Source of the DNA: an uncultured Leptolinea sp.
GTDB lineage: Bacteria; Chloroflexota; Anaerolineae; Anaerolineales; Anaerolineaceae
DNA length: 64,000 nucleotides
Assembly: GCA_964648485.1 (NCBI GenBank)
Contig: CAZYOF010000017.1
Coordinates: 3,744 to 67,743, forward strand
Direction: 5' to 3'
Made by a program: the position numbers and the translations under genes. Position 1 is the first letter of the stretch. Each line of letters opens with the position of its first letter. A model generated the notes under the pieces. That model ran no database searches, was not told the DNA's origin, and saw nothing but the letters and a program-made list of their open reading frames with translations. Below, one piece after another: positions 1 to 44,017 of this stretch.

Positions 1-1
1 T

Positions 2-16277: not shown

Positions 16278-16306
16278 GAATGATTGGGAAAATTTATGCG
16301 CAGGGA

Positions 16307-17161: not shown

Positions 17162-17585
17162 GATTCCGCCGATGAGCCCAAACCAACAAAGCCGAAGTAA
17201 AAATTAACACCAGACCGATGGCATCAAATACAATAAATCGTTGAATAGATGAAACCATGTTATACGAAAGTGTCAATTGACTTTTTATCCAGATTTCTCC
17301 AATCAAACCGGTAAGCTGCATCAGAAGGGCGCAAATGAGTAGAATAAACCATTTATGGGGGTGAAAGATCGCAAATATGTAGGGAATATTCCACATGATG
17401 AACAAAACCCCAATAGATTGAATGACGGCTTTCCCGGTTATATCTGGGGTAAGGTCAAAACTGGGAGCGTAATCTTTTGCAAAAACAATAAATTGAATTG
17501 CGCATAGAATATTCCATGCTGCCACGATAAGGATGAGCACCCTGGGAAGGAGAGATTTAACAATTACCCTCTTATTAACGAACAT
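17151..17585 (-). CDS. Integral membrane protein of unknown function
   Basis: 144 aa with four hydrophobic helices. Its stop overlaps the rhodanese start by 11 nt. Confidence 0.5.
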   Translation of the reverse strand: MFVNKRVIVKSLLPRVLILIVAAWNILCAIQFIVFAKDYAPSFDLTPDITGKAVIQSIGVLFIMWNIPYIFAIFHPHKWFILLICALLMQLTGLIGEIWIKSQLTLSYNMVSSIQRFIVFDAIGLVLIFTSALLVWAHRRNHEI

Positions 17586-17593
17586 GCTTTCTC

Positions 17594-18235: not shown

Positions 18236-18238
18236 GTT

Positions 18239-24782: not shown

Positions 24783-24893
24783 GGCATTTCTCCCGAAAAT
24801 AACTGCTTATGGATGAATTGACCCTCCATATCTTTCTGCGAGGGCAATTTCAATATAGCATGCGGGAGACAGTTTGAACCTTACAGCTACTTT

Positions 24894-25820: not shown

Positions 25821-25821
25821 A

Positions 25822-27177
25822 TCAGCGCAACCTCGGGAAGTAATCACCATGCCGGGCGAGGTAGGCATCTACCAGCGCCTGTGCGCCGAGGTAATCTGCC
25901 ACCAGCGGATGGATGGTGAGGGCGTGGATGGCTTTCGCACGGCTGCCTTCCACCGCCGCTTCGATGGTCTTCTGCTCGTAGGCTTTGACGGTTTGCATGA
26001 GCCCCAGGCAGTGGATGGGAATCTCGCCCACCGGAATGCCTTCCACTTTATCACGGCTGACCCGCGCGGCGATCTCGACCACTTCGTCATCCTGCATCCC
26101 CTGCACGCAACCCCGGTTGGGGATGTTCACGATAAGCGTGCGCTGTTCACCTCCCACCAGCGCCTCGATCAGGTTGAGCGCCAGGCGCGCGTATCCCAGC
26201 TCGGCATCGCGGACGGTCGTCTCATCCACCTTGACCTGCGTTTCATCCCCACCCCAGTGCGCCCTGCCGCGCTCGATGAGGTAGCGGTTGTACACGCGCT
26301 GCAAGCCTTCGGCATCTTCCTTCTGGCGCGCCTCGCGCACCATGGCAAAGAAGGCGTGGTTCATGCGCGCCACTTCTTCTCCACGCAGCTCGGCAGCGGA
26401 TTTCATGTGCGCGTACTCTTCACGCGACTGGTAGTAATACTTGAGATAGTAATTGGGCAGCAACCCCAACGCTGCAGCCACCTGCGGGCGGACCTCGTAG
26501 CCGGGAATATCTTCTTCTTGCGCAAGGAAAGCAAGGATCTGCCCGATCAGCTCCTGATCGCCCACCTTCACCGAACGGATCCAGCCCAGGTGGTTCAAGC
26601 CAAAATACTCCGCCTGGATCTGGCTCTCATACAGCAGCAGCGAATCGGCAATGGCGGAGATCATGTCCGAGGGACCATCGCAGATGCCCACCGCGCGTTG
26701 CCATCCACCCACACTGGCAACCGCCTCTGCCAGCATCCCACTGGGATTGGCGAAGTTGATGAGCCACGCGTTGGGACAGAGCGTTTTCATCTGCTCCACG
26801 TATGCCAGCAGAACGGGGATAGAGCGCAAACCCATGGCAAAGCCACCCGCGCCGGTGGTCTCTTGCCCGATGTAGCCCAGATCGACCGCCACGCGCTCAT
26901 CGATCACGCGCGAGTCGATGCCGCCCACACGGAAGATGGTGATCACGTAATCCGCGCCGCGCAGGGCATCTTCTGCCTTCGTGGTGCGGTGGATGCGGAA
27001 TTTGACCGCCGGGTCGCTTTCGAGCAGCATGGTGATGGCGCCGATCAGCTCCAGCCGCTCGGCATCCACATCCATCAGCCAGAGTTCTGTAATCCCCAGC
27101 GCGTTTTGCCGGGTGATGATTTCCTGCACAATCAGCGGCGTTCGTACCCCCGCCGCACCTAAAATGGTCAGTTTCAT
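25822..27177 (-). CDS. Glycoside hydrolase family 4 (6-phospho-glucosidase-like, NAD/Mn-dependent)
   Basis: The MKLTILGAAGVRTP Rossmann start, overall length and ..NFANPSG.. motif are typical of GH4. Confidence 0.8.
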   Translation of the reverse strand: MKLTILGAAGVRTPLIVQEIITRQNALGITELWLMDVDAERLELIGAITMLLESDPAVKFRIHRTTKAEDALRGADYVITIFRVGGIDSRVIDERVAVDLGYIGQETTGAGGFAMGLRSIPVLLAYVEQMKTLCPNAWLINFANPSGMLAEAVASVGGWQRAVGICDGPSDMISAIADSLLLYESQIQAEYFGLNHLGWIRSVKVGDQELIGQILAFLAQEEDIPGYEVRPQVAAALGLLPNYYLKYYYQSREEYAHMKSAAELRGEEVARMNHAFFAMVREARQKEDAEGLQRVYNRYLIERGRAHWGGDETQVKVDETTVRDAELGYARLALNLIEALVGGEQRTLIVNIPNRGCVQGMQDDEVVEIAARVSRDKVEGIPVGEIPIHCLGLMQTVKAYEQKTIEAAVEGSRAKAIHALTIHPLVADYLGAQALVDAYLARHGDYFPRLR

Positions 27178-27313
27178 ATGCCACCTGTAATATTGGGTTG
27201 AGCAAATTATACCTGATGCCCGCCCGCGCCCGGAACTGTTCGATAGTTCTCCTGTATAATTTTAATGCAACGGCAGCGCGGATTCCACGTATATTTGTGT
27301 GAGGATAAAGAAG

Positions 27314-27730
27314 ATGGGCAAAAAACATAAGGATGAGAAGAAATTGAAACAACCCTGGCGCAATTTGCACGGCGCCATCTGGCTGATCGGATTAGGCTAC
27401 CTGTTCATCAGCGGCAACTGGTTCCCCGGTATTCTGTGGCTGATCGGGGTGAGCATGATCCTCGAAGCCGTGCTGATGATGGCGGTACCCGATGCCTACG
27501 AAGAAGAGGAACCAAAGGAAACCAAACCCGAACCGACCCCCGGACCGGCGGTGTTGGAGACCGATTTCAGCATTCCGGCGCCCGCTCCCAGAGCGGAGCC
27601 GCGCCCCTACGCTTCTCTGCCCACCAACTGCCCGCGCTGCGGCGCCCCTGCCCGTGGACACGAGGTGATCTGGCACGGCAGCCATTCTGCCGATTGCGCC
27701 TTCTGCGGTGCGAGTTTGCCCATCAAATAA
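27314..27730 (+). CDS. Small membrane protein with a Pro/Glu-rich linker and a C-terminal Cys4 zinc-ribbon
   Basis: Two TM helices, then CPRCGAP...CAFCGAS. GAGGA lies 8 nt before the ATG at 27314. Confidence 0.5.
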   Translation: MGKKHKDEKKLKQPWRNLHGAIWLIGLGYLFISGNWFPGILWLIGVSMILEAVLMMAVPDAYEEEEPKETKPEPTPGPAVLETDFSIPAPAPRAEPRPYASLPTNCPRCGAPARGHEVIWHGSHSADCAFCGASLPIK

Positions 27731-27798
27731 TCAAATTCCTCTCTCCCCAATCTTCGATTGGGGAGAGTATGTTTGTTCCCTACTTTGCTAATTAAACT

Positions 27799-28023
27799 GT
27801 CATTCTGCCTTGCCCTGGCGGGCTAGGCCAGGGAGCGCAGCGAAGAATCTCTACCAATGTTTAACTTAATGATTCATCACATCATGCCAGACCACAATAC
27901 GAAGTAGAGATGCTTCACGTTGTTCAGCATGACAAACTGGGGTTAATAAATATATCCTGTTTTTTTACTGTCAACCTACCTCAGTCTATCATTCTGCCTT
28001 GCCCTATTGGGTATAAGCCAGGC
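27799..28023. repeat. Cluster of REP/MITE-like intergenic repeats
   Basis: A 17-nt identical core tcattctgccttgccct occurs at 27800-27816 and 27989-28005. An imperfect 30-nt inverted repeat pairs 27799-27854 (with a 26-nt insertion) against 27904-27933. An internal 7-bp hairpin is ccctggc/gccaggg. Confidence 0.65.
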
Positions 28024-28031
28024 TTAAATTT

Positions 28032-28784
28032 CTATCTATACTCCGCATCCCAGGGGGTGCGGCTGGTAATGATGAGGAGATAATCTGTCTCATCAATATC
28101 CACCATAAGTTCGTACGGGGTGTGTTTACCCACCAACTTCACAAATCCATCGTCTGTCAACACCGTGACTGAGAAAGCATCTCTATCTTCAGTAGAAAAT
28201 TTCACCGTCCCCGGACCTCCGCGCAAAAATACAATATCACTCCCCATCCCCGTATAAGAAAAACCCAGGGTTAGAATATGCGAATCCAAAACATGACCCA
28301 GTGGGATAATATCCATAGTCCATAACCCATCGGTATCTACATCAACGTATTGATAAATTTGATCCAGCATAAATAATGGGACGTACGCATCATACAACCC
28401 GATGTCATCCATGATCACACCGAGCTGATTATTGTCTTCATCCAGTGCGGTGATTGTAAAGTACGTGGCACCCGCGGTGGCGATCCTCGCCACGGGCAGA
28501 TACTCAAAGCAATTCAGGTCCAATTCAAAAGTTGAGCCGCCATCTCCGGCGAAGACCAGGTATTCTTCTACATACTGCGGATCGCAAGAGCCCTCCGGTG
28601 TAGGTTGCATGGTAGGTAAAACCGTAGGCGTAACCACGGGCAGATGTGTGGACGTGGGCACCCAGGGCAGATTCACCTCGGGCGGGGATGACACGGTTTG
28701 TACCAAACGCGTAAGGTTTTCTGCCGAAAAGCAAGACAGGCATAAAAAGCTGACAAACATGGATAGCGCCAATAATCTTTTCAT
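28032..28784 (-). CDS. Secreted protein or lipoprotein of unknown function
   Basis: N-terminal signal peptide MKRLLALSMFVSFLCLSCFS. No recognisable catalytic motif. Confidence 0.5.
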   Translation of the reverse strand: MKRLLALSMFVSFLCLSCFSAENLTRLVQTVSSPPEVNLPWVPTSTHLPVVTPTVLPTMQPTPEGSCDPQYVEEYLVFAGDGGSTFELDLNCFEYLPVARIATAGATYFTITALDEDNNQLGVIMDDIGLYDAYVPLFMLDQIYQYVDVDTDGLWTMDIIPLGHVLDSHILTLGFSYTGMGSDIVFLRGGPGTVKFSTEDRDAFSVTVLTDDGFVKLVGKHTPYELMVDIDETDYLLIITSRTPWDAEYR

Positions 28785-28858
28785 CGTTCCCCTCTACATC
28801 CTATTATAGGCAGTTCACCAAATTTATTCACTGTTTTGCAAGCCCAATTTGCATGGAA

Positions 28859-29353
28859 TCAACCTTTCACCCCCCTGCGTTTCTCCTCCTGCATCATTAG
28901 CGCCATATTCTTATAAAACAGCAGCCCCACGATCATATCATTCCAATTACGAAAGAGATGATTGAGCGGCATGAGGAAAGGCTTGCCGTAGTCTCGCTGC
29001 TGGTAGAGCTTGCCCGATGCCCACAGCTTCCACAGATCCACACCCGTGCGGTCGCGCAGATCGGTGAAAAGGGCATCGAGGATGGCTTCCCACACGCCCG
29101 CTTTCACCCAGCCGGTGTAGCGCCTGAAACAGGTGGTGTAGGGTGGATAGCCCTCGGGCAGCTCCATCCACTGGATGTCACGCAGGATGACATAGAGGAT
29201 GCCCTCGAGCACATCGCGGTCGTTGGCGGGTTTGCGCCCCACCGTGCCCTCTGCCCGCGGGGGGATGACCCCCTGCACGAGCTGCCAGCGCCGGTCGTTG
29301 AGGAAGGTGGTTTTACGCTGCATGGTATTTAGTAATGAAATGAAATTTTGCAA
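28859..29353 (-). mobile_element. IS5/IS4-family transposase N-terminal (DUF4096-like) domain gene with no DDE domain following; probable IS remnant
   Basis: LNDRRWQLVQGVIPP...GRKPANDRDVLEGILYVILRDIQWMELP..YPPYTTCFRRYTGWVKAGVWEAIL matches the typical IS5-group OrfA N-terminal pattern. It sits exactly at the high-GC to low-GC transition. Confidence 0.55.
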
Positions 29354-29641: not shown

Positions 29642-30715
29642 ATGCCGATTGAAATTGGAATTTGGCGTATTGAAGATAAGTTAGCCAAAGTCGAATACAT
29701 ACCAATTGAAAATGAAAAAAAACTCGAACAGATCATAATAAAAAATATCCAGATTATCGATAAAGATCTGTTAGTTATTGGTAACCAAATCACCACCGCG
29801 TATGGAAATAAACTAGATATTCTAGCAATTAATAAGAATGCTGAGTTAGTACTAATAGAATTAAAGCGAAATAAGACACCTCGCGATGTTGTAGCCCAAT
29901 TACTTGATTATGCGACCTGGGTTGAGCACCTAAGTTATGATGACGTTAATGCGTTCTATGAAGAAAATCACCCAACAAAAAAACTAGAGCAAGCATTTAA
30001 TGAACATTTTGAGCTTGATATCCCAGATGAATTCAATGAAACCCATAAGTTAATTATTGTCTCTTCAGAATTAGATAACAGTACAGAAAGAATAATTCAT
30101 TATCTATCAGACAATGGTATAGCGATTAATGCAATATTCTTTAAATTTTTCAAAGAAAATGATAAAGAGTACATCACAAGAAGTTGGTTAATCGACCCAT
30201 TCACAACTGATGAAAATGTAAAGAAAACAACAAAAAGATCAAAAAACCTATTTTGGAATGGCAGAGATTGGTATGTGTCTCTTGGTGTAGATGAAAGCCG
30301 CAACTGGGATGATTGTAAAAAATATGGGTTTATATCGGCTGGAGGTGGTAAATGGTACAGTAATACTTTGGCTTTATTACCACTTGAAGCAAGGGTATTT
30401 GTTTGCATACCGAAAGTTGGATATGTAGGTGTCGGTATTGTAAAAAAACAAGCTGTGCCAGTAAAAGAATTCCTTGTTGAGATTGATGAGAAGGAGAGGC
30501 CAATTCTTGAAGCAGAATTAAAAGCAACAAAAATGGGCGAATTTGCAGATGATTTGGAAAAATCTGAGTATTTGGTTGGTGTTGAATGGCTAAAGACTGT
30601 ACCGATAACCAAAGCTATTTGGGAAAAAGGTATGTTTGCCAACCAGAATTCTGCATGTAAACTGCGGAATAGCTTCACGATTGAGCGTTTAACCAAGATC
30701 TTCGAATTAGAATAA
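29642..30715 (+). CDS. NucS-like PD-(D/E)xK nuclease domain fused to an unassigned C-terminal domain (candidate modification-dependent or type IV-like restriction protein)
   Basis: N-terminal [38 protein letters not shown] matches the D..ExK..Q..Y core of NucS-like nucleases. The C-terminal 150 aa ([23 protein letters not shown]...[16 protein letters not shown]) is unassigned. TATAAT lies at 29611-29616 and AGGAGGG 5 nt before the ATG. The line 29701-29760 counts at about 25% G+C. Confidence 0.6.
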
Positions 30716-30735: not shown

Positions 30736-32262
30736 ATGACAGATAATTCAAACGAACTTGAAAAAACACTATGGGCAGCCGCAGATAAAATGCGCTCGAA
30801 TATGGACGCAGCTGAATATAAACACGTCGTATTAGGATTGATTTTTCTCAAATACATTTCTGATGCATTCAACGATTTGTACCAAAAGCTCGCAGAGAAC
30901 AAAGGCGAATATGAGGGCTCTGATCCTGAAGACCCAGATGAGTACCTGGCTAACAATGTCTTTTTCGTACCTGAAAAAGCGCGCTGGCAATACCTGCAGG
31001 ACCGCGCCAAACAGCCAGAAATCGGCAAATATCTTGATGACGCCATGGATGCCATCGAACGGATTAACCCGCCGCTCAAGGGTGTGCTTCCCAAAATTTA
31101 TGCAGACCCAGAGTTAAACAAGCCGCGGTTGGGGGAATTAATTGATTTAATTGGCACAATCGGTTTTCGCCAGGATGCGCACGCGTCCCAGGACCTGCTG
31201 GGGCGTGTCTATGAATATTTCTTAGGCCAATTTGCCGACGCCGAAGGGAAAAAAGGCGGACAATTTTACACCCCTGCCAGTATTGTTAAACTACTTGTCG
31301 AGATGATTGAACCTTTTAACGGCCGTGTCTATGACGGCTGCTGCGGCAGCGGCGGTATGTTTGTTCAGAGTGAAAAGTTTGTCCGTAACCACCAGGGGAA
31401 CATCAAAGACCTGTCGATCTTTGGACAAGAGTCCAACCCCACCACCCTGCGGCTGGCGCGCATGAACCTGGCTATTCGCGGGATCGACGCCAAACTGGAA
31501 CTAGGCGATACCTTCCTCAATGACCGCCATCCAGACCTCAAAGCGGATTTCATTCTAGCTAACCCGCCTTTCAATGTGAGTGATTGGAGCGGCGAGCAGC
31601 TGCGCGATGACATTCGTTGGAAGTACGGACTGCCGCCAGTCGGTAACGCCAATTATGCCTGGCTGCAGCATTTTATCCATAAACTCAGCCCCACGGGTAC
31701 CGCCGGAATTGTGCTCGCAAACGGAAGTATGAACAGCAACACTGGCGGTGAAGGCGAGATTCGCAAGAATATGATCGAAGCTAACATAGTGGACTGCATG
31801 GTTGCCCTGCCTGCCCAGCTTTTTTATAATACGATGATCCCTGCCTGTCTATGGTTCCTGGCTAGAGACAGGACGAATCATAAATTTCGCAACCGTTCCA
31901 ACGAGCTATTATTCATTGATGCCCGCAAACTGGGATCGATGATTAATCGCCGCAACAAAGAGTTTGCACCCGAAGATATCTCCAAAATCGCTGGCACCTA
32001 CCACGCCTGGCGCGGCGAGGGCGGTGTGTATGAAGACCAGCCCGGTTTTTGCAAAGCGGCAACCATGGATGAAGTTCGCGCTAACAATTACGTACTGATG
32101 CCCGGGCGATATGTGGGCACGGAAGAAGCCGAAGATGACGGCATCCCGTTTGAAGACAAAATGAATGCGCTGACGGCTCAACTGGCTGAACAGTTCGCCC
32201 GTGGAAATGAACTACAGCAACGGATTCGCGAGAATTTGAAAGGGATCGGTTATGAATTCTGA
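30736..32262 (+). CDS. hsdM: Type I restriction-modification system, DNA methyltransferase subunit (N6-adenine)
   Basis: HsdM N-terminal domain ([32 protein letters not shown]), AdoMet motif [10 protein letters not shown] and catalytic NPPF. Confidence 0.95.
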
Positions 32263-33376
32263 AGTAAAACTTCTTCCGCCAGCCAGGTTGGAAGAAACCA
32301 AACCCATCTTAAAAAAACTGGCATCCGCACACCGTTACCTGGCAGAGTTAAAGGGTGTAGCTGCATCGATCCCCAACCAAACCATCCTGATTAACACGCT
32401 CGCGCTGCAGGAAGCCAAAGACAGTTCTGCGATTGAGAATATCATTACTACACATGATGCTCTGTATAAGGAGCAGTTATTCAGCGATGTGATTAGCGAC
32501 GCCGCTGCAAAGGAAGTCAGCCTTTACGCGGAAGCGCTCAAACATGGTTTTGATCTGGCTACGAAAAATCACATGCTCACACTAAACCATGTTGTCGAAA
32601 TCCAGAAACGGCTGGAACAGAATGACGCCGGCATACGCAAAATTCCAGGCACGGTACTGGTCAACCCGGCTAGTGGATCGGTTATTTATACACCTCCTCA
32701 GGAGTATCAGACCATTCTGAGATTAATGGATAATCTGATGGCGTATATCAATAACCAAGAAATGCATGATGTGGACCCCTTAATCAAAATGGCGGTTATT
32801 CACTACCAGTTTGAAACCATCCATCCCTTTTATGACGGCAATGGACGCACCGGCAGGATCATTAATTTGCTTTACTTGGTCATGGAAGGGTTATTAACCT
32901 TACCAGTTTTATACCTCAGCCGCTACATCATTCGCAACAAAGGCGAATATTACCGTCAGCTGCAAAGCGTGCGGGACACTGACGAATGGGAACCCTGGAT
33001 ATTGTACATGCTAGAAGCAGTGGAACAAACCTCACAGCAAACCATTCTGCTGGTGAACGGCATTAAAGACCTGATGATGGATTACAAACACCGTATCCGC
33101 AGTGGGTATCCCCGGCTTTACAGCCAGGATCTGATCAACAACTTATTCAGGCATCCTTACACCAAGATCGAATTCTTAATGCGAGATTTGAACATCAGCC
33201 GGCTGACAGCTGCCAAATACCTGGACACGCTGGCAGCGGATGGTTTTCTGGTCAAAGAGAAAATTTGGCGCAGCAATTACTATGTCAACCTCCCGTTATT
33301 TAACCTGCTAAAAGGAGATAACGGGCCGGTCGATACAGAACCGGTTGTCCTCACCCGCCGTATGGATCAGGTATAA
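32252..33376 (+). CDS. Fic/DOC-family protein (Fic_N, Fic and a C-terminal wHTH-like domain) embedded in the R-M operon
   Basis: Canonical Fic motif [12 protein letters not shown]. The N-terminal inhibitory-helix motif SSAIEN fits [ST]xxxE[GN]. The start overlaps the hsdM stop by 11 nt. Confidence 0.9.
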
Positions 33377-33530
33377 AAACAGATGAAAAGTAAACACGAT
33401 CAATTTGTCATGCATAAAATAGCAAAAAATTTATACATGAAACAAATGTCATGCATAAATCCAGTAATGACCTTTAAGTTAGAAGATAATCAAGAGAAGT
33501 CCATTCACCAGAAATTTGGGGGTATGAGTT

Positions 33531-34778
33531 ATGAGTTCTAATGAATGGAGAAAATATAAATTAGAGGAAATTGCTGAGATTATTGGAGGCGGTACTCCAT
33601 CAACAACAAATCCAGATTTTTGGGGCGAAGAGATACCTTGGGTAACTCCTCGCGATTTAGCCAGTACTGATGAACGTTTTATCTCATGCGGGGAAAGGAA
33701 TATTACAAAAAAGGGTCTACAAAACTCAAGTGCACGGTTGCTACCCGCAGGAACAGTTTTACTGACAACACGAGCCCCAATAGGTTATTTGAGAATTGCA
33801 TTGAATCCAATTTGCACAAACCAAGGATTTAAAAGTCTAATTCCAAAAGCAGATATTGCTGATAACCAATTTCTTTTCTATTTGCTTAAAAACAATGTTG
33901 AGTATTTAAAATCGGTTGGCGTAGGAACCACATTTGCTGAAATATCTGGAAGTGCACTACGGCAAATTGAATTTCAATTTCCTCCCCTCCCCACACAACG
34001 CCGCATCGCCGAAATCCTCTCCGCGCTGGATGACAAGATCGAACTCAACCGCCAGACCAATGCCACCCTGGAAGCCATCGCCCAGGCCATTTTCAAGGAG
34101 TGGTTTATCAATTTCAACTTCCCCGGTTCAACCGGTGAGATGGTCGAGAGTGAACTGGGGATGATTCCCAAGGGGTGGAGAGTGGGGAAGCTGGGAGATG
34201 TATGCAAGTTGATTAAAGGCGTATCTTATAAAAGTAGCGAGTTACAACATTCGGATTCAGCTCTTGTAACTTTAAAATCCATAAATCGTGGAGGTGGGTT
34301 TAATAATGATGGATTTAAAGAATATTTAGGTACTTTTAAAACCTCACAGTGCCTAAAAGAAGGGGATTTGATTTTTGCACAAACTGATATAACTCAGAAT
34401 GCGGATGTTGTCGGTAGCCCTGCAATAGTAGAAAATCCCTTTAATTATAAAAATCTTGTCGCTTCTCTTGATATTGTCAAATGCGAACCCACAAACGAAA
34501 TGCCTAGTAGCGGCACACTTTATTATTTTTTACAACGCCAAGAATTTAAAGATTACTGTTTGAGTCAAACAAATGGTTCGACTGTCTTACATTTGCGTAG
34601 CTCAGAAGTCCCGAATTATTTGATGATCATACCCTATTCAAGTATTTTAAGAGAATTCAATTCTACAATAACTCCTATCAGGCAAATTATCCTAGAAAAT
34701 AATCAGCAGAATCAAATTTTACGAGAAATTCGTGATGAATTATTGCCCAAATTGATGAATGGGGAAATTGAGGTATGA
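33531..34778 (+). CDS. hsdS: Type I restriction-modification system, specificity subunit (two target-recognition domains)
   Basis: Typical TRD start EIAEIIGGGTPST..P.FWGEEIPWVTPRDL, central conserved region PPLPTQRRIAEILSALDDKIELN and distal conserved helix [20 protein letters not shown]. Confidence 0.95.
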   Translation: MSSNEWRKYKLEEIAEIIGGGTPSTTNPDFWGEEIPWVTPRDLASTDERFISCGERNITKKGLQNSSARLLPAGTVLLTTRAPIGYLRIALNPICTNQGFKSLIPKADIADNQFLFYLLKNNVEYLKSVGVGTTFAEISGSALRQIEFQFPPLPTQRRIAEILSALDDKIELNRQTNATLEAIAQAIFKEWFINFNFPGSTGEMVESELGMIPKGWRVGKLGDVCKLIKGVSYKSSELQHSDSALVTLKSINRGGGFNNDGFKEYLGTFKTSQCLKEGDLIFAQTDITQNADVVGSPAIVENPFNYKNLVASLDIVKCEPTNEMPSSGTLYYFLQRQEFKDYCLSQTNGSTVLHLRSSEVPNYLMIIPYSSILREFNSTITPIRQIILENNQQNQILREIRDELLPKLMNGEIEV

Positions 34779-35824
34779 GCGGATTTAAATATGAGGATGA
34801 CAATTGTAGGCGATTTAATGACTCCCTCGATGAAGAAGGTCTGGTATACATCGCGGGGATTGAATTTCAAAGAAGCCGCATCCTCTATGAATTGGCAACC
34901 ACTACATATATTGATGCGTATAACGAGTTTCAAGAACAGGAATTTCAAGAGTTAAAGCAGACTGTTTTTGATTCATATCCAGCCTGTGTCGCCTATAATT
35001 TTCGGCTATCTGAAAGGGGGGAAGGCGCAAACGATCCTGTACGAAAGCTCTTGCATTTGAAGGATTCCTGGGAAGCAATCGTTTTCGTTTTATATGCTTT
35101 GGTTATGGGGGAAGTGAGATTTAGAAATATTGACATGAAGACATCACAAATATTCGTTTCACTAGGAACTGGAGGAAACCCTGTTTACGCCAATTTCAAT
35201 ACAGACAGGATCCTTTCAGATGCTATCAAACAAAAAGTTCAAAACATTAAAGCCATAATTCTCCATTGTAAAAACAATCATCTGGGATTCAAATGCGAAG
35301 AAATCGATGAGACTTTGCTAGATGACCTGTTGGATTTGCAGGATATTCGCAACGATATTTCACACCATACAGCTCCAACGCGTGAACAGGCAGAGGCTGA
35401 ACTTGCTTTAGTGATCCCATTGTTTCAAAAAATGTTGACGAAAACAAAGTTTTTGGAACGCTGCAATATTCTTCGATTTGATAGTTACTCATCATCTTGT
35501 CGATGTGAATCCTTCAATGGACATTCCCTCAACCGGGAGTATGATAACTACCCATTCCATGATCCGCAAAAAACAATGGTGTTAGGCCTTGGACAGGAAC
35601 AATTGTTTGTAAACTGGGATGGGGAATGCTTTAGCCTGTCTCCTTTCCTTCATTTTGACCGCGATAATTCTGGACATGAGTCTTATTTATGCTTTTATAA
35701 AGGAAAGAAAAACAGCAAATATTGGTTTGAGCCAGTAAAAATTCGAACTGAGAAATCATTTGATTCCATTCAATCTCGTTTTGAAATAGAAAAAGACGAT
35801 CTTGTCAGACTTTTGGTGCCATGA
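34775..35824 (+). CDS. Uncharacterised 349-aa protein translationally coupled between hsdS and hsdR; candidate HEPN-like (Rx4H) effector
   Basis: ATGA overlaps at both ends (34775-34778 and 35821-35824). The motif [14 protein letters not shown] gives R-N-x3-H in a predicted helical region. No Walker A motif and no match to a family I can name. The line 35101-35160 counts at 35% G+C, against 60% in the hsdR line 36721-36780. Confidence 0.6.
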
Positions 35825-38800
35825 TGATATTATACGAATCCGAAATTGAACAAATATCCCTCGAATTACTCCGTGACGAGAACGGCTATGTCATCCTTTA
35901 TGGTCCAGACCTATTAGAAGGCGCCTCTCCCGAGCGTGGTTATAGCGAGGTGGTTCTTAAAAACCGCTTACGCGCTGCCATTAACCTGATTAACCCGCGC
36001 ATTCCAGAGGAAGCGCGTGAAGAAGCCTACAAAAAAGCGTTGCGTACCCAGGCGCTGACTGTAATCGACAACAACGAAGCCTTCCACCACCTGCTAACCG
36101 AAGGCGTGGATGTGAAATTCAGTGTTGGTGATGGCAAAAGCCGCACTGATAAGGTCTGGCTGGTGGACTTCGCGGTTCCGGAGAATAATGAGTTTTTAGC
36201 CGTCAACCAGTTCACCGTGGTGGAAAATAACATCAACAAAAGGCCGGATATCGTCCTCTTCATCAACGGCTTGCCGTTGGTGGTCATCGAACTGAAGAAT
36301 GCTGCTGATGAAAAAGCGGATGTGCAGGCAGCCTTTCACCAGTTACAAACCTACCAACAGGTGATTCCTTCCCTGTTTACATTTACCGCCTTTGAAGTGA
36401 TCAGTGACGGTTGGTTTGCCAAAGCCGGCACCATCTCCAGCGACTATTCCCGCTTCATGGAATGGAAAAGCCTGGACGGCGTCCATGTGGTGGATTCAAA
36501 ACACGAACCCGAACTGGAACCTTTGATCAGGGGGTTGTTAAACAAGACGACACTGCTGGATATCATCCGTCACTTTATCGTTTTTGAAAAGACCAAAGAA
36601 AAAACAATCAAAAAAGTGGCCGCCTACCACCAGTATTTTGCTGTCAATAAAGCCATCATCTCCACCTTGCGCGCCTCAGCTAATGAAAACGGGCATTTCG
36701 CCGCTGAACACCCGGCCGTTTATGGGCTGCCAACTGTCGATCACCAACCCAAAGGCGATAAACGCGCCGGGGTGGTGTGGCACACCCAGGGCAGCGGCAA
36801 GAGCCTTTCCATGGTGTTTTATGCCGGCAAGCTGGTGCTTGCAGAAGAAATGAATAATCCCACTCTGGTGGTGCTGACCGACCGAAATGACCTCGACCAG
36901 CAGCTCTACGAGACGTTCAGCAATTGCCAGCAGTTATTACGCCAGACACCGGTGCAGGCTACCAACCGCGAAGATCTGAAAAAATTGCTTTCGGTGGCTT
37001 CCGGCGGGATTGTCTTTACCACCATTCAAAAATTTTTGCCGGAAGAAAACGGCGGGGTGTATCCAACACTGACCGAACGACGCAACGTGGTTGTCATCGC
37101 GGATGAAGCTCACCGCAGCCAGTACGATTTCATTGACGGCTTTGCCCGGCATATGCGCGATGCTCTGCCGAATGCCTCATTCATCGGGTTTACCGGTACC
37201 CCGATTGAGAAAGAAGATAAAAATACCCAGGCGGTTTTTGGCAATTATGTGGATATCTATGATATTCAGCAGGCTGTGGAAGATGGTGCGACTGTGCGCA
37301 TCTTTTACGAAAGCCGGTTGGCAAAAATTGAACTATCTGCTGCGGATCAAAAAATCCTCGATGAACGCGTTGAAGAAATCACCGAAGATGATGAACTGAC
37401 CGAAAAGCAAAAACGCTTTGCCCGCTGGACTGGCAAGGAAGCCGTGGTGGGAAGCAAAGATCGTATCAAACAGGTGGCAGCGGATATTGTCAGTCATTTT
37501 GAGCAGCGCCTTTCTGCCGCAGAGGGCAAAGGCATGATCGTCTGCATGAGCCGGCGCATCTGTGTTGCACTGCACAAAGAAATTATCAAATTACGCCCTC
37601 AATGGTACAGCCCGGAGGATGACAAAGGCGCCATTAAAATCGTAATGACCGGCTCAGCCAGTGATCCACTCGATTGGCAGGAGCATATCCGCAATAAAGA
37701 TCGGCGCAAGGCCATTGGCAATCGTCTGAAAGACCCCAACGATACGCTCAAGCTGATCATTGTCCGGGATATGTTCCTGACCGGTTTTGATGCGCCTTGC
37801 CTGCACACCATGTATATTGATAAACCCATGAACGGGCATACCCTCATGCAGGCTATCGCCCGGGTCAACCGGGTCTTTGGCGACAAAGAAGGCGGGCTGA
37901 TTGTCGATTACATCGGCATCGCCCAGGATTTAAAAAATGCGCTTTTAGTGTATGCTGCCAGCCAGGGCAAAGGACAGATCACCTTCGATCAGGAAGAAGC
38001 AGTCGCCAAGATGCTGGAATATTATGAAATCGTGGTGGATATGTTCGGGCGTTTTGATTATCGTCGCTATTTCGCATTGGAACCCAAGAAAAAACTCACC
38101 TTCATCCTTGACGCAGCCAATTACATTGCCGACCTGTCTGAAGTAAAAGAGGGCACAACTATCCGCAATGGGAAAGAGAGATTCAAGGAGAACGTCATTA
38201 AGTTACAAAAGGCCTTTGGTTTGGCAGTTCCGCACCCCAAAGCGCTCGAAATCCGCGATGATCTGGCTTTTTTTCAGGCGATCAAAGCCCGTTTCACCAA
38301 GTTTGACGAGACAACAAAGACGCGCACGAACGAAGAAATCGAAACGGCCATCCGGCAAATTATTAATGACGCAATTATTTCCAGTGAAGTCATCGATGTC
38401 TTCGATGCCGCCGGCATTCGCAAACCGGATATTTCCATCCTTTCGGATGAGTTTTTGTCCGAGATTCAGGGCATGGAACGTCGAAATCTGGCGCTTGAAC
38501 TGCTCAAACGATTGCTCAACGATGAGATAAAAACCCGAGGACAAATGAATATGGTCCAGGGACGCAAATTCTCTGAAATGCTGGCGGAAGCAGTGAAACG
38601 CTATCAGAATGGATTAATTGATTCGGCTAAGATCATTGAAGAATTAATTCTATTGGCGAAGGATATCCGCGCAGCGGATCAACGCGGCGAAAAGTTGAAT
38701 CTCCGCCAGGATGAATTGGCCTTTTACGACGCTCTTGCAGATAACCCAAATGCTGAAAATCTGCTTGGTGATCAAATCCTGAAGCAAATCGCCCACGAGC

Positions 38801-39003
38801 TCACCGAAAGCGTTAGGAATAATACTTCAATCGACTGGCAATATAAGCAGAGTGTGCAGGCAAAATTGCGGGTATTAGTGAAGCGTATATTACGGAAATA
38901 CAAATATCCACCGGATGATCCGGCGACTGGCGAATATACAATATCTGTAAATAAAGTATTGGATCAGGCAACTCAATTAGCAGGTTTTTGGGCTGGTCAA
39001 TAA
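35821..39003 (+). CDS. hsdR: Type I restriction-modification system, restriction/translocase subunit
   Basis: N-terminal PD-(D/E)xK nuclease ([19 protein letters not shown]). SF2 helicase motifs ([17 protein letters not shown]). 1060 aa. Confidence 0.95.
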
Positions 39004-39045: not shown

Positions 39046-39297
39046 TTACACTCCCCAGCGCAGCGGGTTGTGGATGATGTATTCGCGGATGCGCGCTAAA
39101 TCCGCTTCGCCGCGGATGATATGCTCATAATAATTGCGCTGCCAGATCGGCGTGCCCTGGGTATCGTTGATCTCTTTGATCCGTTTGGTGACGGCGGATT
39201 TGTATGCCCGGACGATCGTGGGGAGGGTCGTTGGGGCGCAGCGCGCTGCGCCCGTACGAGGGGCGCTAGTTGGGGTACAGCGTGCTGTGCCCGTACG
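39046..39297 (-). pseudogene. 3' fragment of an IS200/IS605-family Y1 (RAYT-like) transposase gene
   Basis: Hand translation of the minus strand gives RTGTARCTPTSAPRTGAARCAPTTLPTIVRAYKSAVTKRIKEINDTQGTPIWQRNYYEHIIRGEADLARIREYIIHNPLRWGV*. The motif WQRNYYEHIIR..YI..NP is the conserved C-terminal block of this family. The HUH-containing N-terminal half is absent. Confidence 0.7.
39231..39297. repeat. Two REP-like GC-rich palindromic units (40-nt period)
   Basis: gggcgcagcgcgctgcgccc (39234-39253) is a perfect 20-nt palindrome. gggtacagcgtgctgtgccc (39273-39292) is an imperfect copy. Each is preceded by tt/g and followed by gtacg. Confidence 0.75.
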
Positions 39298-42200
39298 CTA
39301 GGGCGCGATTTTTTCGAGCACAGCCAGCAGAGTCTCCTGCCAGGCGGCATCCGCCGGGTCGAAGGGCAGCCAGTAGGCGTTCTTGCCGGCGCGGGCAAGC
39401 GTGCCCAGGTTGGGCAGGTTGCGCTGGGTGATGCCCTCGGGCAGGGGAGGGTAGCGCAGCACGATCTGTCCGCTTTCGGCGCTGATCGATGCCAGGCGGG
39501 CGCTTTCTGCCAGCAGCTTTACCTTGATCTGGTACAGCAGGTTGCGCACGGTTTCGGGCGGCTCGCCAAAGCGGTCTGTAAATTCACCCTGCAGCTCATC
39601 CACACCGGCGGCGTTATCCAGATCTGCCATGCGGCGGTAGAGCTTGAGACGCATGCCCATATCGGGCACGTAACTTTCGGGGATCTCGACCGCCAGCGGC
39701 AGATCCACCTGCACTGGCAAGCCAATCTCCTTCTCGAGCAGCGGGGCGGTGGATTCAGAATCGGGCATGCCGCGCAGGTTGCGCTGCATCTTCACCGCCG
39801 AAGCCAGCAGGCGGGTGTATAGATGAAAGCCGACCGTGGCTATGTATCCGCTCTGGCGGCTGCCGAGCAGTTCGCCCGCGCCGCGCATTTCGAGGTCGCG
39901 CATGGCAATGGAATAACCCGCGCCCAGCTGGGTGTTCTCGGCGATCACCTCGAGCCGTTCCTGCCCTTCGAGCGTGGGCGCGCGGTGTTTGTGGCGGAAG
40001 AAGTACGCGTAGGCGCGCTGGGCGCCGCGTCCCACCCGTCCGCGCAGCTGGTAGAGCTGCGCCAAGCCAAAGGTGTCGGCGCGGTCCACGATGAGCGTGT
40101 TCGCGTTGGGGATATCCAACCCCGATTCGATGATGGAGGTGCACAGCAGCACATCGATCTCTCCGGCGGTGAACTGCTGCATCACGCGCGAGAGCGCGCC
40201 TTCCTCCATCTGCCCGTGACCGATGCCGATACGCGCTTCGGGCAGCAGCTTTTTCAGGTGCATCATCATCGCCGGGATGGTCTGCACGCGGTTGTGGAGG
40301 AAGAAAACCTGTCCGCCGCGTTCGAGTTCGCGGCTGATCGCCTGCTTCACCAGGCGGGGAGAGTACGGTCCCACGTGGGTGATGATGGGCAGGCGCTCGT
40401 CGGGCGGGGTGTTGATGGTGGAGATGTCGCGTACGCCGGTCAGCGCCATGTAGAGCGTGCGGGGGATGGGTGTGGCGGTGAGCGTGAGCACATCCACTTC
40501 GGTGCGCAGCTTTTTGAGATGCTCCTTGTGGGTCACGCCGAAGCGCTGCTCTTCATCGATGATCACCAGCCCGAGGTCTTTGAAGCTGACATCCTCGCTG
40601 ATGAGGCGGTGGGTGCCGATGACGATATCCACCTGCCCGAGCATGAGTTTGCGGATGATCTCATCCTGTTCGCGGGCAGAGCGGAAGCGCGAGAGCATCT
40701 CAACATTGGCGGGGAAGGGCTGCAAGCGCTGGCGGAAGGTCTCATAATGCTGCTGCGCCAGAACGGTGGTGGGCACGAGCACGGCAACCTGTTTGCCATC
40801 CATCACCGCTTTGAAGGCGGCGCGCAGGGCAACCTCGGTTTTGCCGTAGCCTACATCCCCGCACAAGAGCCGGTCCATGGGGCGGGCGTTCTCCATATCG
40901 CGCTTCACGGCAGTAATGGCATCCATCTGGTCGGGCGTCTCCACATAGGGGAAGCTGCCCTCGAGCTCAAACTGCCAGGCGCTGTCTTTGGAGAAGGAGA
41001 AACCCTTCGCCACCTGGCGCTCGGCGTACAGGTCGAGCAGGTCCTGCGCAATCTCTTCCACCGCGCCGCGAACCTTGCTCTTGGTGTGCATCCACTCCTG
41101 GCTGCCGAGGCGCGAGAGGGCGGGGCGCTGGTTGCTGGTGCCGATGTAGCGGGTGAGCCTGTCCGCCTGGGGGATGGGGACGAAGAGCTGGTCGCCGCCG
41201 TCGTAATCGATGGCGATAAACTCGCGGGTGATATTGTCGATGGTGCGCCGCACGAGCCCCTGGAAGATGCCGATGCCGTGATCCATGTGCACCACCAGGT
41301 CGCCGATCTGAAAGTCGCCATATTGGGCTTCGGGCGCCTCCACGGTGTGGATCTGCTTGCGGCGCGGCTGGGGTTTTTCCCAGCCGAATACCTCGCTGTC
41401 GGTGTAGAGGAAGACGGGCTTGCCATCTTCCTGGTAGTGAATGAAGCCAGAGAGCAGGCTGCCATCCATAAATTCGGGCTGGGTGAGGGGCACATCCACC
41501 AGGTGGGTGCGCTCATTCCACAATTCGTACAGGCGCGGGCGCTGGCGGGTGATGATGGTCTGCTGAAAGCCCTTGCTGGCGGCATCGAAGAGCGCATCGA
41601 TGAAGGCAGGCTGGCGTCCGGCAAAACGCTGGTTCGCCTGGAAGGCATCTGCCAGAGGAGAGGATTCGCCGCCGGTACCGAAACCCAGATCCACGGCGGG
41701 GTTGCTGCCGATCGAATCCTGTATCTCAGACCAGGTCAGGTAGGGCACGGGGTAGCTGGAGGGCAGATCCCCTGCCCAGACAGCTTCGTTGCGGTTGCCC
41801 ACCGCTTCCTCTTCGATGAGGGTCACGGCGCTTTCGAGCTTGGCGGAATCATCCAGAATGACGAGTGTTCCGCGCGGCAGGTAATCGAGCAGGGAAGAGG
41901 GGAACGCGTGCAGCAGCGCCAGGTGGAACTCGGTGTAAGGTTGTCCCTGCATCTCGGGGTCAGGGGTGAGCGGCTGGAGGAACTCGCGCGCGGGGGGCAG
42001 CAGGTATTTTTCGAGCGGCTGGATGGCGCGCTGGCTGGCGGGGTCGAAGAGCTTGATGGTATCGACCTCGTCGCCGAAGTAATCGAGCCGGATGGGATGG
42101 TCGGCGGTCATGGACCAGATATCGAGGATGCCGCCGCGGCGGGCGAACTGCCCGGGTTCGGCAACAATCTCCACCGCCTCGTAACCGAGCGTAACCAGCT

Positions 42201-42678
42201 GCTGGAGCAGCTTCTCCTGCGGCAGGCTCATCCCACGGGTGAGGCGCGCCAGCGCCTTGAGGAAGTCGCGGCGCGGCATCGAGCGGGTCATCACCGCCTT
42301 GGCGGAGGCGAAAATGAGTGGGTGGCTTTGCGGATTGCCACCCGGTAAATGGTATTCTGCCAGTGCTGTTAGGGTTTGCAGCCGGTCACGGCGGGTTTGG
42401 GCTCCCCAGGGGTCTTTTTCATAGAAGAGAGAATTGGGTTCAGCGAAGATCACCCGCTGCAGGTTCGGCTGCCAGAAGCCGGCTTCATCATAGTAAGTAG
42501 TCACGCGGTCCATGCGGTCGGTGATCACCAGCACCGGGGTGGGGGAATCCGCTGCGAGGGCAGCCATGAGCAGCGGGCGGGCGGATCGCAGCAGCGCCAG
42601 CGGAGGGGAACTCACCCCGCTCTGGATCTGCTTCAGTAGATTGCGGTATGCAGAATGGCTCTGGAGATGTTCAAGCAT
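39298..42678 (-). CDS. mfd: Transcription-repair coupling factor
   Basis: 1126 aa with a UvrB-homology N-terminus, a CarD-like domain, SF2 helicase motifs (GDVGYGKTEVA, IIDEEQRFGV) and a TRG region. Very GC-rich; the line 40021-40080 counts at 73% G+C. Confidence 0.95.
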   Translation of the reverse strand: MLEHLQSHSAYRNLLKQIQSGVSSPPLALLRSARPLLMAALAADSPTPVLVITDRMDRVTTYYDEAGFWQPNLQRVIFAEPNSLFYEKDPWGAQTRRDRLQTLTALAEYHLPGGNPQSHPLIFASAKAVMTRSMPRRDFLKALARLTRGMSLPQEKLLQQLVTLGYEAVEIVAEPGQFARRGGILDIWSMTADHPIRLDYFGDEVDTIKLFDPASQRAIQPLEKYLLPPAREFLQPLTPDPEMQGQPYTEFHLALLHAFPSSLLDYLPRGTLVILDDSAKLESAVTLIEEEAVGNRNEAVWAGDLPSSYPVPYLTWSEIQDSIGSNPAVDLGFGTGGESSPLADAFQANQRFAGRQPAFIDALFDAASKGFQQTIITRQRPRLYELWNERTHLVDVPLTQPEFMDGSLLSGFIHYQEDGKPVFLYTDSEVFGWEKPQPRRKQIHTVEAPEAQYGDFQIGDLVVHMDHGIGIFQGLVRRTIDNITREFIAIDYDGGDQLFVPIPQADRLTRYIGTSNQRPALSRLGSQEWMHTKSKVRGAVEEIAQDLLDLYAERQVAKGFSFSKDSAWQFELEGSFPYVETPDQMDAITAVKRDMENARPMDRLLCGDVGYGKTEVALRAAFKAVMDGKQVAVLVPTTVLAQQHYETFRQRLQPFPANVEMLSRFRSAREQDEIIRKLMLGQVDIVIGTHRLISEDVSFKDLGLVIIDEEQRFGVTHKEHLKKLRTEVDVLTLTATPIPRTLYMALTGVRDISTINTPPDERLPIITHVGPYSPRLVKQAISRELERGGQVFFLHNRVQTIPAMMMHLKKLLPEARIGIGHGQMEEGALSRVMQQFTAGEIDVLLCTSIIESGLDIPNANTLIVDRADTFGLAQLYQLRGRVGRGAQRAYAYFFRHKHRAPTLEGQERLEVIAENTQLGAGYSIAMRDLEMRGAGELLGSRQSGYIATVGFHLYTRLLASAVKMQRNLRGMPDSESTAPLLEKEIGLPVQVDLPLAVEIPESYVPDMGMRLKLYRRMADLDNAAGVDELQGEFTDRFGEPPETVRNLLYQIKVKLLAESARLASISAESGQIVLRYPPLPEGITQRNLPNLGTLARAGKNAYWLPFDPADAAWQETLLAVLEKIAP

Positions 42679-42681
42679 ACT

Positions 42682-43284
42682 TTACGCTTCTCCCATCACC
42701 TCACCGTTGTAGGTGTTCATGGCTTTGTCGAGTCCTTCGAGCACGAAGGTCCGCGCCGCCTGGCTGGCTTCGGCGATCACTTTCTCCATGACAGGCTGAT
42801 CCGCTTTTGGGAAGTCTTGCAGCACGTAGTCGGCGGCTTCCATGCGACCGGGAGGTCTGCCCACGCCGATGCGCAGACGGGGGAAGGCTTGTGTACCCAG
42901 CTTTTCGATGATGGAAGCCAGACCGCGCTGTCCGGCGGATCCACCCCCGGGGCGGATGCGGATGGTACCCACCGGCAGGTCGATATCGTCGTGGATGACG
43001 ATCATCTGCTCGAGGGGGATGCGGTAGAAGCGCAGCAGGGAGGTGACGCTCTGCCCGGAAAGGTTCATGAAGGTCTGCGGCTTGACCAGAATCAGCTTGC
43101 GCCCATCCACGAGGGCAGTACCTATGAGAGCTTTACTCTGCACTTTGGAAAGACGGATGGAGAGATCCACGGCAAGTTTGTCGATGGTCATGAAGCCGAT
43201 GTTGTGGCGGGTGTGCTTGTACTCGCGTCCGGGGTTGCCCAGTCCGACGATCAGGTAGTTGTTGGAAGGTTGTTCAGGTAGCAT
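42682..43284 (-). CDS. pth: Peptidyl-tRNA hydrolase
   Basis: LIVGLGNPGREYKHTRHNIGF signature. 200 aa. It lies 3 nt upstream of mfd. Confidence 0.95.
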   Translation of the reverse strand: MLPEQPSNNYLIVGLGNPGREYKHTRHNIGFMTIDKLAVDLSIRLSKVQSKALIGTALVDGRKLILVKPQTFMNLSGQSVTSLLRFYRIPLEQMIVIHDDIDLPVGTIRIRPGGGSAGQRGLASIIEKLGTQAFPRLRIGVGRPPGRMEAADYVLQDFPKADQPVMEKVIAEASQAARTFVLEGLDKAMNTYNGEVMGEA

Positions 43285-43286
43285 GG

Positions 43287-43895
43287 TTATGATCCGGGGT
43301 TGCGTTTGTTGAATATGAGTGCCAGTCCGACCGCGAGAATGATTCCAATGCCCAGAGAGATGATTATGAGCCTCTGTAACCCTGCCTGGGTGAGGGCAGC
43401 CGGGTTGGGCGCTGCTGGTTTTGCGGTTGCGCCGCTGGGGAGCAGGCTCGGCTTGGTGGGCTGCTCTGTGATGGCGGTTTGCGGTTCTGCCGGATTGGGT
43501 GTAACTGTTTCCATCGTGGAATAGTTCCGTACCCGTATGCCGCTGACGATGTGCTCGCTGATCTCACCACCGCTGAAATATACGCGTAAACGGAGGGAAT
43601 AGTTGCCATCGGATATGGAGGTGGTATCCCAGCTACCAAGCAGCCCTTCTTCGGCGGGTCTTTCGGCTGAAGCGATGGGCAGCCAACCGGCAACTTCCCT
43701 GCCGGTGAAAGCAAATTCCAGGTCGTAACGGGTGTATCCGGTAGCTTTGATGTATCCGGTTACCAATACCTGTCCTTTTACCCCTTCACCATCCACAGGA
43801 GAGAGGATGGCGACATCGCCACCCTGTCCACTGGCGGCGTGGAAGGGTAAAACGAATAAAATAACGACCAGGAGGGAAGAAAAAAGTGCTTTCAT
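43287..43895 (-). CDS. Secreted, C-terminally membrane-anchored protein with an Ig-like domain; function unknown
   Basis: Signal peptide, a beta-rich about 100-aa domain, a Pro/Thr/Ala-rich linker, a C-terminal TM helix and a basic tail. Confidence 0.5.
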   Translation of the reverse strand: MKALFSSLLVVILFVLPFHAASGQGGDVAILSPVDGEGVKGQVLVTGYIKATGYTRYDLEFAFTGREVAGWLPIASAERPAEEGLLGSWDTTSISDGNYSLRLRVYFSGGEISEHIVSGIRVRNYSTMETVTPNPAEPQTAITEQPTKPSLLPSGATAKPAAPNPAALTQAGLQRLIIISLGIGIILAVGLALIFNKRNPGS

Positions 43896-43967
43896 CGCAA
43901 TCTGTTAGTTTACACCATCGGCAAAAAGATTGCAAATTCCCCCCTTACAAACAGAACGCCGCCTTTG

Positions 43968-43995
43968 TTGACAGGGCAATCTGCTGATATATAAT
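43968..43995 (+). promoter_or_regulatory. Sigma70-like promoter of the PadR-family gene
   Basis: TTGACA (43968-43973), 16-nt spacer, TATAAT (43990-43995), 22 nt before the ATG at 44018. Confidence 0.55.
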
Positions 43996-44017
43996 ATTCA
44001 ATAATTGAGTATTTATC

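Follow-up and report, generated by a model that had tools for sequence, protein, structure and literature searches.

Between hsdS and hsdR of a Type I restriction-modification (R-M) operon in an uncultured Leptolinea sp. lies a gene, here called X, for a predicted HEPN-like R-M accessory protein. The window, that is the whole stretch of DNA analysed, comprises 64,000 nucleotides (nt) of contig CAZYOF010000017.1 (assembly GCA_964648485.1, positions 3,744 to 67,743). X represents a family that is unnamed, widely conserved and unannotated in every library searched. According to our analysis it probably belongs to the HEPN superfamily, where it is filed under no named family. By analogy with PrrC, we further lean towards the reading that X is an RNase docked on the R-M complex, a guardian that would be freed when restriction is disabled.

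In direct scans, X had no match in Pfam, NCBIfam, PADLOC, PHROGs or the sequences of the PDB. A similarity search returned 211 homologues at E<=1e-3, the best 120 of which are nearly all about 350 amino acids (aa) long and 58-96% identical. Few homologues carry any source name, and those that do are called hypothetical or uncharacterised. They are spread over Desulfobacterota, Bacteroidota, Chloroflexota, Planctomycetota, Ignavibacteriota, Caldisericota, Verrucomicrobiota and other phyla. Searching 1.8 billion cluster representatives extended the family to about 170 clusters (50% identity), down to ~23% identity to X, with members in the cultured hosts Algoriphagus marinus am2 and Clostridium estertheticum. 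A tblastn search of X against phages and 72,556 plasmids gave no match. Compared with its 98%-identical relative in a Caldisericales metagenome-assembled genome (MAG; locus L001), X shows 19 synonymous and 7 nonsynonymous codon differences, which points to purifying selection.

Our first-pass annotation, made from the letters alone, had picked out an Rx4H motif in X and read it as a HEPN signature. This motif, RNDISH, is indeed encoded at 35348-35365, and the X family as a whole carries the pattern by which HEPN proteins are recognized (Rx4-6H, often RNxxxH). Conservation was counted in an alignment of all 104 full-length representatives, including ones first left out. R192 is kept in 103 of them, E100 likewise in 103, H197 and L188 in 102 each, and N193 in 98. 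A second alignment of 85 family members, with a mean column identity of 23%, has only four invariant columns, namely E100, L188, R192 and H197. The R/H pair, whose conservation among homologues had been anticipated, is thus nearly invariant down to ~23% identity. Representative P0140 shows Rx5H spacing instead of Rx4H, and the pair is lost in only two representatives, P0208 and P0255, both of which lie in hsd operons.

In the predicted structure the motif takes up the position that it has in HEPN domains. In the AlphaFold model of X (pLDDT 89, pTM 0.87), a long helix (residues 88-117) of the putative HEPN core carries E100. It is followed by an insert between helices (118-178), with a beta-hairpin at 125-140 and short helices at 151-176. 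The next helix (179-196) ends at S196 within the motif, H197 opens a loop, and a further helix spans residues 203-223. At the level of secondary structure, both the position of the motif at a helix end and loop start and the acidic E100 in the preceding helix, together with the insert, fit the published HEPN definition (PMC3710099). HEPN helix-1 probably lies upstream, at residues 42-80. It would thus fall within an N-terminal module (residues 1-84) which, according to model and alignments, consists of helices and a beta-hairpin and carries the conserved pattern FNxxLD...PSxxL...Y...(F/Y)PxxIA.

The C-terminal domain may serve in sensing or docking. Its resemblance to small SH3/Tudor/KOW-like barrels is weak, and its weak Foldseek neighbours, none of them significant, are 53BP1 Tudor, EF-P-like and RNA polymerase II elongation complex entries. 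The earlier description of this part as beta-like holds, with about 120 aa of predicted strands and one helix, while the richness in Cys and His described along with it does not extend beyond the close clade. Among the 104 representatives G249 and P290 are nearly invariant, H293 is kept in 61, and C242/C244 are absent from the broad-family consensus. We considered a zinc site formed by the C-terminal Cys/His residues and rejected it, as these residues are not conserved beyond the close clade.

Profile comparisons of the relatives returned to the HEPN superfamily repeatedly. When 85 members were scanned singly against Pfam, there were 19 sub-threshold HEPN matches (11 to HEPN_Swt1, 5 to HEPN_RiboL-PSP and one each to MAE_28990, Apea and Cthe_2314), and every non-HEPN family was matched once only. 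The best HEPN_Swt1 (PF18731) score, 26.1 bits for P0125, compares with a gathering threshold of 27.5; X itself has no match to this model and is therefore not filed as a member. Sub-threshold matches of relatives to HEPN_Swt1, RiboL-PSP and Abi_2 fall in the region of residues 85-229, and the family motif aligns at about the same HEPN profile positions in different members. The only PADLOC models matched repeatedly were Cas13b (3 members) and one CARF-HEPN model (2 members); Csx1, three further CARF-HEPN models and RT-HEPN were matched once. DUF4145-type HEPN (PF13643) matched no member and only one family consensus (E=0.89, 10.1 bits). In a whole-chain Foldseek search against the PDB, the HEPN toxin HepT (6m6u) stood at rank 12 (E=0.59), with the highest probability (0.35) and the highest target-normalised TM-score (0.47) of that list.

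X is also tied to its operon, and most closely to hsdR. As described before, its 349-aa reading frame is locked by ATGA overlaps at both ends, with the hsdS stop at 34778 and the hsdR start at 35821, and a promoter and terminator scan inside hsdS-X-hsdR found nothing above chance. Wherever the contigs of the 24 genome loci extend far enough, X directly follows hsdS and precedes hsdR on the same strand. The same order runs throughout a distant clade 24-35% identical to X, for which loci were collected with family query A4 from metagenome contigs only. Among related loci, hsdS and X overlap or lie within 25 nt in ~41 of 47, and X and hsdR overlap or lie within 15 nt in ~36 of 42. Most exceptions contain an inserted RhuM, DarT-DarG or HATPase+DUF4325+PIN, and the others a damaged X. 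A minority order, hsdM-hsdS-hsdR-X, occurs in P0125, P0208 and Clostridium estertheticum (8-nt hsdR/X overlap); because it keeps X beside hsdR, we regard hsdR as the invariant neighbour. The expected linkage of homologues to hsd genes was thus found, with X adjoining hsdR in every locus with enough flank.

The two genes also diverge together. Across loci, the identity of X rises with that of HsdR (Spearman 0.91, n=36) and with that of HsdM (0.87, n=31). Between the window and L001, DNA identity is ~93.5% across hsdM and the SoFic gene, breaks off in the exchanged body of hsdS, and returns to this level for the last ~60 nt of hsdS and for X and hsdR. Since identity resumes in the last ~60 nt of hsdS, X travels with hsdR across the specificity-swap boundary. 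As a whole, window positions 30751-38150 are ~93.5% identical to the Caldisericales MAG save for the hsdS body, a textbook hsdS specificity swap. The operon is in addition 98.5% identical over 1.1 kb to a contig of a Verrucomicrobiota MAG (L024), and such near-identity across phyla points to recent horizontal transfer or to binning errors.

Base composition had been taken as a sign that X is an inserted cassette. The G+C figures behind this view are exact (35% at 35101-35160 and 60% at 36721-36780 in hsdR), and the view itself did not stand. X has a lower G+C than hsdR in 36 of 36 loci (mean difference -8.7 points) but cannot be told apart from hsdS in this respect (mean difference -1.3 points, with X the lower in 20 of 39). 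The offset is thus family-wide and common to hsdS, the divergence of X tracks that of HsdR and HsdM, and the 39% G+C of X is close to the window baseline of about 40-44%, nearer to it than hsdR or hsdM.

Judged from gene content, X is an accessory gene and encodes no core R-M subunit, since the slot that it fills is taken by unrelated genes in sister hsdR lineages. A core Type I subunit would be found in all operons of its HsdR lineage, and X is not. Near-full-length HsdR relatives (>=80% of query) occur in 208 plasmid records, the best at 52-54% identity, which is the same distance as that of the HsdRs of the distant X-bearing clade. In the two plasmid loci inspected, the slot holds genes unrelated to X by hhalign. 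Acinetobacter plasmids (L063, 6883-7911) have a 342-aa DUF2939 protein between hsdS and hsdR, and a Myroides plasmid (L062, 3822-7939) has a 537-aa hypothetical and an 838-aa PLD-like protein; these may be further uncharacterised R-M guardians. X is damaged in otherwise intact hsd operons, being frameshifted in L050 (2157-3156) and L051 (1032-2031) and interrupted in L057 (17-373), which indicates that it can be lost without loss of the R-M genes. The interrupting element in L057 carries IstA/IstB-like genes (IS21-type, judged by eye). This locus was examined as a counter-example to the hsdR linkage and dismissed, as X is there split by the IS21-like element.

Natural variants bear on how X is built. 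In three proteins of ~800 aa (P0260, P0261 and P0268) the X module is C-terminal to HSDR_N/ResIII/Methylase_S-type segments and aligns from query residue ~59-68 onward, with RNxxSH intact; P0262 has the same layout without a Pfam match. As residues 1-58 are missing from these relatives fused to target recognition domain (TRD) or HsdR_N parts, this segment suggests itself as a candidate docking element of stand-alone X. The two representatives without the R/H pair have gained other domains. P0208, with R-I-G-L-S-D at the motif, carries a C-terminal PNP_UDP_1 domain and follows hsdM-hsdS-hsdR beside a CBASS system. P0255, whose gene comes after hsdS and overlaps it by 4 nt, has an EAD7 domain (E=8e-18). 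EAD7 has been described as an adaptor without enzymatic activity that recruits effectors (PMC7159879). That the motif-less members keep an otherwise intact scaffold and carry another effector, or a recruiter of one, in place of a dead HEPN is what would be expected if the HEPN part is the effector and the rest of the protein a sensor or dock.

Some further observations concern the same modules. P0268 is an 851-aa HSDR_N-ResIII-TRD-X fusion within Tn7-like cargo (TniB, TniQ/TnsD) in L059 (JGI Ga0679490_0000087, 1-18556). This cargo also encodes a 1155-aa DEAD/ResIII helicase, a fusion of HsdM, zinc ribbon and Ser/Thr kinase, and a NACHT NTPase, and the gene set looks like an unusual R-M-derived defence assembly. 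In P0253 (466 aa) the C-terminal segment matches the end of HsdR T1RH-like_C (E=6e-6, just under cutoff), and the protein is either a genuine fusion of X with an HsdR tail or an artefact of assembly or of a frameshift. Three small actinophage proteins (84-132 aa; BFVD D0U252, A0A482JLW4 and A0A7D5G079) match 52-60 residues of the X model at 25-30% identity, with Foldseek probability >=0.98 and weak E-values of 0.08-0.4. They could share a small domain with X or be a phage mimic of a docking element.

We propose that X consists of three parts: a helical module at the N-terminus, a core of the HEPN RNase type and a C-terminal module resembling a beta-barrel. The observed overlaps would couple its translation to that of HsdS and HsdR, and the non-catalytic modules of the product would attach it to the restriction complex, with HsdR as the most likely contact. 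Such docking is suggested by the invariant adjacency, the co-divergence and the fusions. In the docked state the HEPN site (E100/R192/H197) would be silent, by analogy with PrrC-EcoprrI. When a phage anti-restriction factor (for example a DNA mimic or a peptide) or other damage disables or dissociates the complex, X would be freed. It would then probably dimerise like other HEPN RNases and cut tRNA, rRNA or mRNA, and translation stop, growth arrest or aborted infection would follow. More tentatively, X might be a modular restriction-status sensor, in which the N- and C-terminal modules bind HsdR and monitor the condition of the Type I enzyme, with an interchangeable effector. The effector would be a HEPN RNase in most members, an ATP- or nucleoside-cleaving PNP in P0208, and in P0255 an EAD7 adaptor recruiting a remote effector; in some lineages the scaffold would be covalently fused to HsdR_N, helicase and TRD parts. 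If true, this would make X a new compact, ATPase-free guard family for Type I R-M, with a way of sensing unlike that of PrrC.

Several results weigh against X as an R-M-docked HEPN RNase, most of them concerning the HEPN assignment. The R/H pair, its placement and the weak profile matches speak for the signature proposed in the first-pass annotation, but no HEPN model reached its curated threshold for X or for any relative, and the weak matches, being anchored on the motif, are not independent of it. Whole-chain Foldseek searches against the PDB and BFVD gave nothing significant, HEPN folds included. A model of residues 85-232 found only generic helical bundles in the PDB, a weak negative because this construct had lost the probable helix-1. 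Family profile A2 had no HEPN or other meaningful match among PDB sequences, searches with P0125 and P0187 found nothing there, and a transitivity search via relatives of P0125 reached two proteins only, without Pfam annotation. Consensus sequences A1, A2 and A4 brought no improvement against Pfam (a low-complexity consensus gave a spurious Trans_coact match), and hhalign of A2 with one NTase_sub_bind HEPN sequence aligned a 14-residue motif alone, which shows no relationship. Beyond the fold, the effector-swap argument rests on two clusters only, and the loci, all retrieved by similarity to X, show the neighbours of X and not its frequency in the hsdR lineage. The missing thresholds, the generic bundles and the bare 14-residue alignment would all be expected if R, H and E had some other task, be it a different chemistry or the binding of a ligand or of nucleic acid, within a novel helical fold that resembles HEPN in the motif only. 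We regard this as improbable, given near-invariant R, N and H with an upstream Glu, the canonical placement of the motif at a helix end and loop start, the confinement of recurrent matches in two libraries to HEPN families, and an R-M setting of the kind usual for HEPN proteins.

Other explanations differ on what X does for the operon. X may be a constitutive fourth subunit that aids restriction and kills no cells, for example an RNase that acts with HsdR to clear nascent phage transcripts or R-loops, or a tuner of HsdR assembly or restriction alleviation. Strict adjacency to hsdR, the overlaps, a co-divergence with HsdR and HsdM comparable to that of a core subunit and the fusions to HsdR_N, helicase and TRD segments would all suit such a role. 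It is nevertheless unlikely, as sister hsdR lineages (~53% identity) have unrelated genes in the slot, so that X is not needed for Type I function, and as X is disrupted in otherwise intact operons (frameshifted in two, interrupted by an insertion sequence in one). Moreover, the HEPN-dead variants have gained a PNP nucleosidase-type domain or EAD7, domains usual in suicide or arrest effectors but not in restriction cofactors. About as improbable as a non-HEPN fold is a toxin that stabilises the R-M island by addiction or post-segregational killing, with Hsd as the antitoxin and no dedicated phage sensing. Its silencing logic equals that of the guardian, and it accords with the mobility of the operon, with near-identical copies in MAGs of different phyla and an insertion sequence fragment at the island edge, and with other toxin modules in related operons (SoFic, RhuM, DarTG, PIN). 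Computation cannot separate the two. Among proteins in this position PrrC alone has been characterised, and it reacts to a phage anti-restriction peptide; addiction modules are commonest on plasmids and phages, and the collections of both searched here lack X. Very improbable, finally, is an independent abortive-infection gene lodged in a defence-island hotspot within the hsd operon, with no link to R-M. The hsdM-hsdS and X-hsdR gaps do gather unrelated defence cargo (YhcG, RhuM, DarTG, SoFic), and other lineages hold other genes in the slot of X. X departs from this cargo in being constant, in sharing overlaps with the adjacent genes and in diverging in step with HsdR (rho 0.91); it also stays next to hsdR when gene order changes and occurs fused to R-M domains.

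The proposed R-M-docked RNase has its closest counterpart in PrrC, the R-M guard paradigm, a latent tRNA-Lys anticodon nuclease which responds to a phage anti-restriction peptide (PMC3710099, PMC12707154). In the EcoprrI Type IC locus of E. coli the gene for PrrC likewise lies between hsdS and hsdR of a Type I operon, and PrrC shares with X the HEPN-type R/E/H active site (predicted in X) and the presumed role of a latent effector guarding the R-M enzyme. X differs in lacking the ABC-ATPase/P-loop N-domain and any sequence similarity to PrrC, in being unrecognised by PADLOC, and in having N-terminal helical and C-terminal beta modules of its own; PrrC-like regulation by NTP or dTTP is therefore unlikely. 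That X has no P-loop and is not a homologue of PrrC or RloC had been stated from the outset, and we agree, as X contains no GxxxxGK[ST] Walker A motif and matches no ATPase, PrrC or RloC model.

The association of HEPN proteins with R-M operons is itself well documented, and the general idea of an HEPN RNase within such an operon dates from 2012-2013, so that the family described here adds an increment and no new concept. Anantharaman et al. (2013; PMC3710099) connect at least 16 HEPN clades with R-M operons and also propose a 'three-level defence' of R-M, HEPN and DOC/Fic; the window, with its SoFic gene, is an instance of this arrangement. The Swt1/Abi2 clade and other R-M-embedded families treated there (Abi2/AbiD/AbiF, DUF4145, ApeA, EC042_2821) share with X the RNxxxH motif and the operon context, whereas X and its relatives stay below every curated threshold for them. 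A ~350-aa three-module architecture with strict hsdS-X-hsdR synteny is not described in that paper, as far as its text goes. HepT of the MntA-HepT (MNT-HEPN) toxin-antitoxin system, the structure with the top though not significant Foldseek probability, is a four-helix HEPN RNase with Rx4H. It is a ~130-aa stand-alone toxin neutralised by an adjacent nucleotidyltransferase, whereas no MNT partner accompanies X. PARIS (AriA/AriB) and other 'R-M guardian' systems resemble the proposed role of X in sensing the inhibition of restriction and causing growth arrest (PMC12707154). The PARIS proteins are unrelated to X, are encoded apart from R-M genes and sense Ocr directly, whereas X is an integral gene of the hsd operon and evolves along with it.

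The novelty lies in the X family as such, in the strictness with which it adjoins hsdR in many phyla, and in the variants whose effector has been swapped or which are fused to R-M parts. Knowledge of R-M guardian effectors comes mainly from one case, PrrC, whose regulation relies on a large ABC-ATPase domain. X is an ATPase-free 349-aa protein in the position of PrrC, found in operons of at least eight phyla with an almost invariant predicted catalytic triad. If the guard model is true, X would offer a small, tractable system for how a cell senses a disabled restriction enzyme, and it would add to defence catalogues an unannotated family missed by Pfam, NCBIfam and PADLOC.

Table 1. Coordinates of gene X, its predicted parts and the neighbouring operon genes in the window
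Feature	Position	Strand	Basis or remark
Gene X, predicted HEPN-like R-M accessory protein	34775..35824	+	349 aa, only long open reading frame there
N-terminal module of X (residues 1-84)	34775..35026	+	Model secondary structure, conservation
Putative HEPN core of X (residues 85-229)	35027..35461	+	Model and published HEPN structural definition
E100, acidic residue of the helix before the insert (HEPN 'helix-2' acidic residue)	35072..35074	+	103/104 representatives
R192-N-D-I-S-H197, Rx4H (RNxxxH) motif	35348..35365	+	Translation checked
C-terminal beta-rich domain of X (residues 230-349) and terminal helix	35462..35824	+	AlphaFold model
hsdS/X ATGA stop/start overlap	34775..34778	+	Sequence
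X/hsdR ATGA stop/start overlap	35821..35824	+	Sequence
hsdS, two TRDs	33531..34778	+	Methylase_S, E=3.5e-46
hsdR with T1RH-like_C tail, invariant neighbour of X	35821..39003	+	Domain-model match
hsdM	30736..32262	+	N6_Mtase, E=5.5e-110
SoFic-type Fic/DOC protein, variable cargo in the hsd operon	32252..33376	+	PADLOC SoFic E=7.8e-117; Fic_N, Fic, SoFic-like_C
PDC-S11 / NucS_C-like nuclease gene, operon head, variable cargo	29642..30715	+	PADLOC PDC-S11 E=1.5e-151; NucS_C E=8.7e-8

The nearest solved relative of the HsdR encoded in the window is that of the Type IC enzyme EcoR124I (E~1e-30). The PDC-S11 / NucS_C-like gene lies 20 nt upstream of hsdM, and the start of the SoFic gene overlaps the end of hsdM by 11 nt. 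SoFic occurs in just 2 of 24 related genome loci and was therefore counted as variable cargo. The R-M island is flanked by blocks of high G+C (55-63%) at 24000-28800 and 39100-44000, the right one with mfd/TRCF (39298-42678, minus strand), and a DUF4096 IS4/5 transposase fragment (28859-29353, minus strand) marks its left edge. These features may mean that the region is a mosaic or was acquired horizontally, or else that the assembly is chimeric.

In related operons, the hsdM-hsdS and X-hsdR gaps serve as cargo slots (L002, L003, L004, L005, L012, L021, L022 and L023). They hold a YhcG/DUF1016 nuclease, RhuM, an NTase_sub_bind HEPN protein, HATPase_c+DUF4325+PIN, or a complete DarT-DarG with an IS200-like gene. 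A conserved 132-aa P-loop protein (MRIIALTG..CGKTTTLN), with weak nSTAND3/ABC_tran matches only, adjoins X in four Bacteroidota loci (L012 1575-1973, L013 4807-5205, L020 9583-9981 and L022 8200-8598), separating hsdS from X in three of these and following X in the fourth. This protein may be an NTPase partner of X specific to that clade, which would recall the ATPase domain of PrrC.

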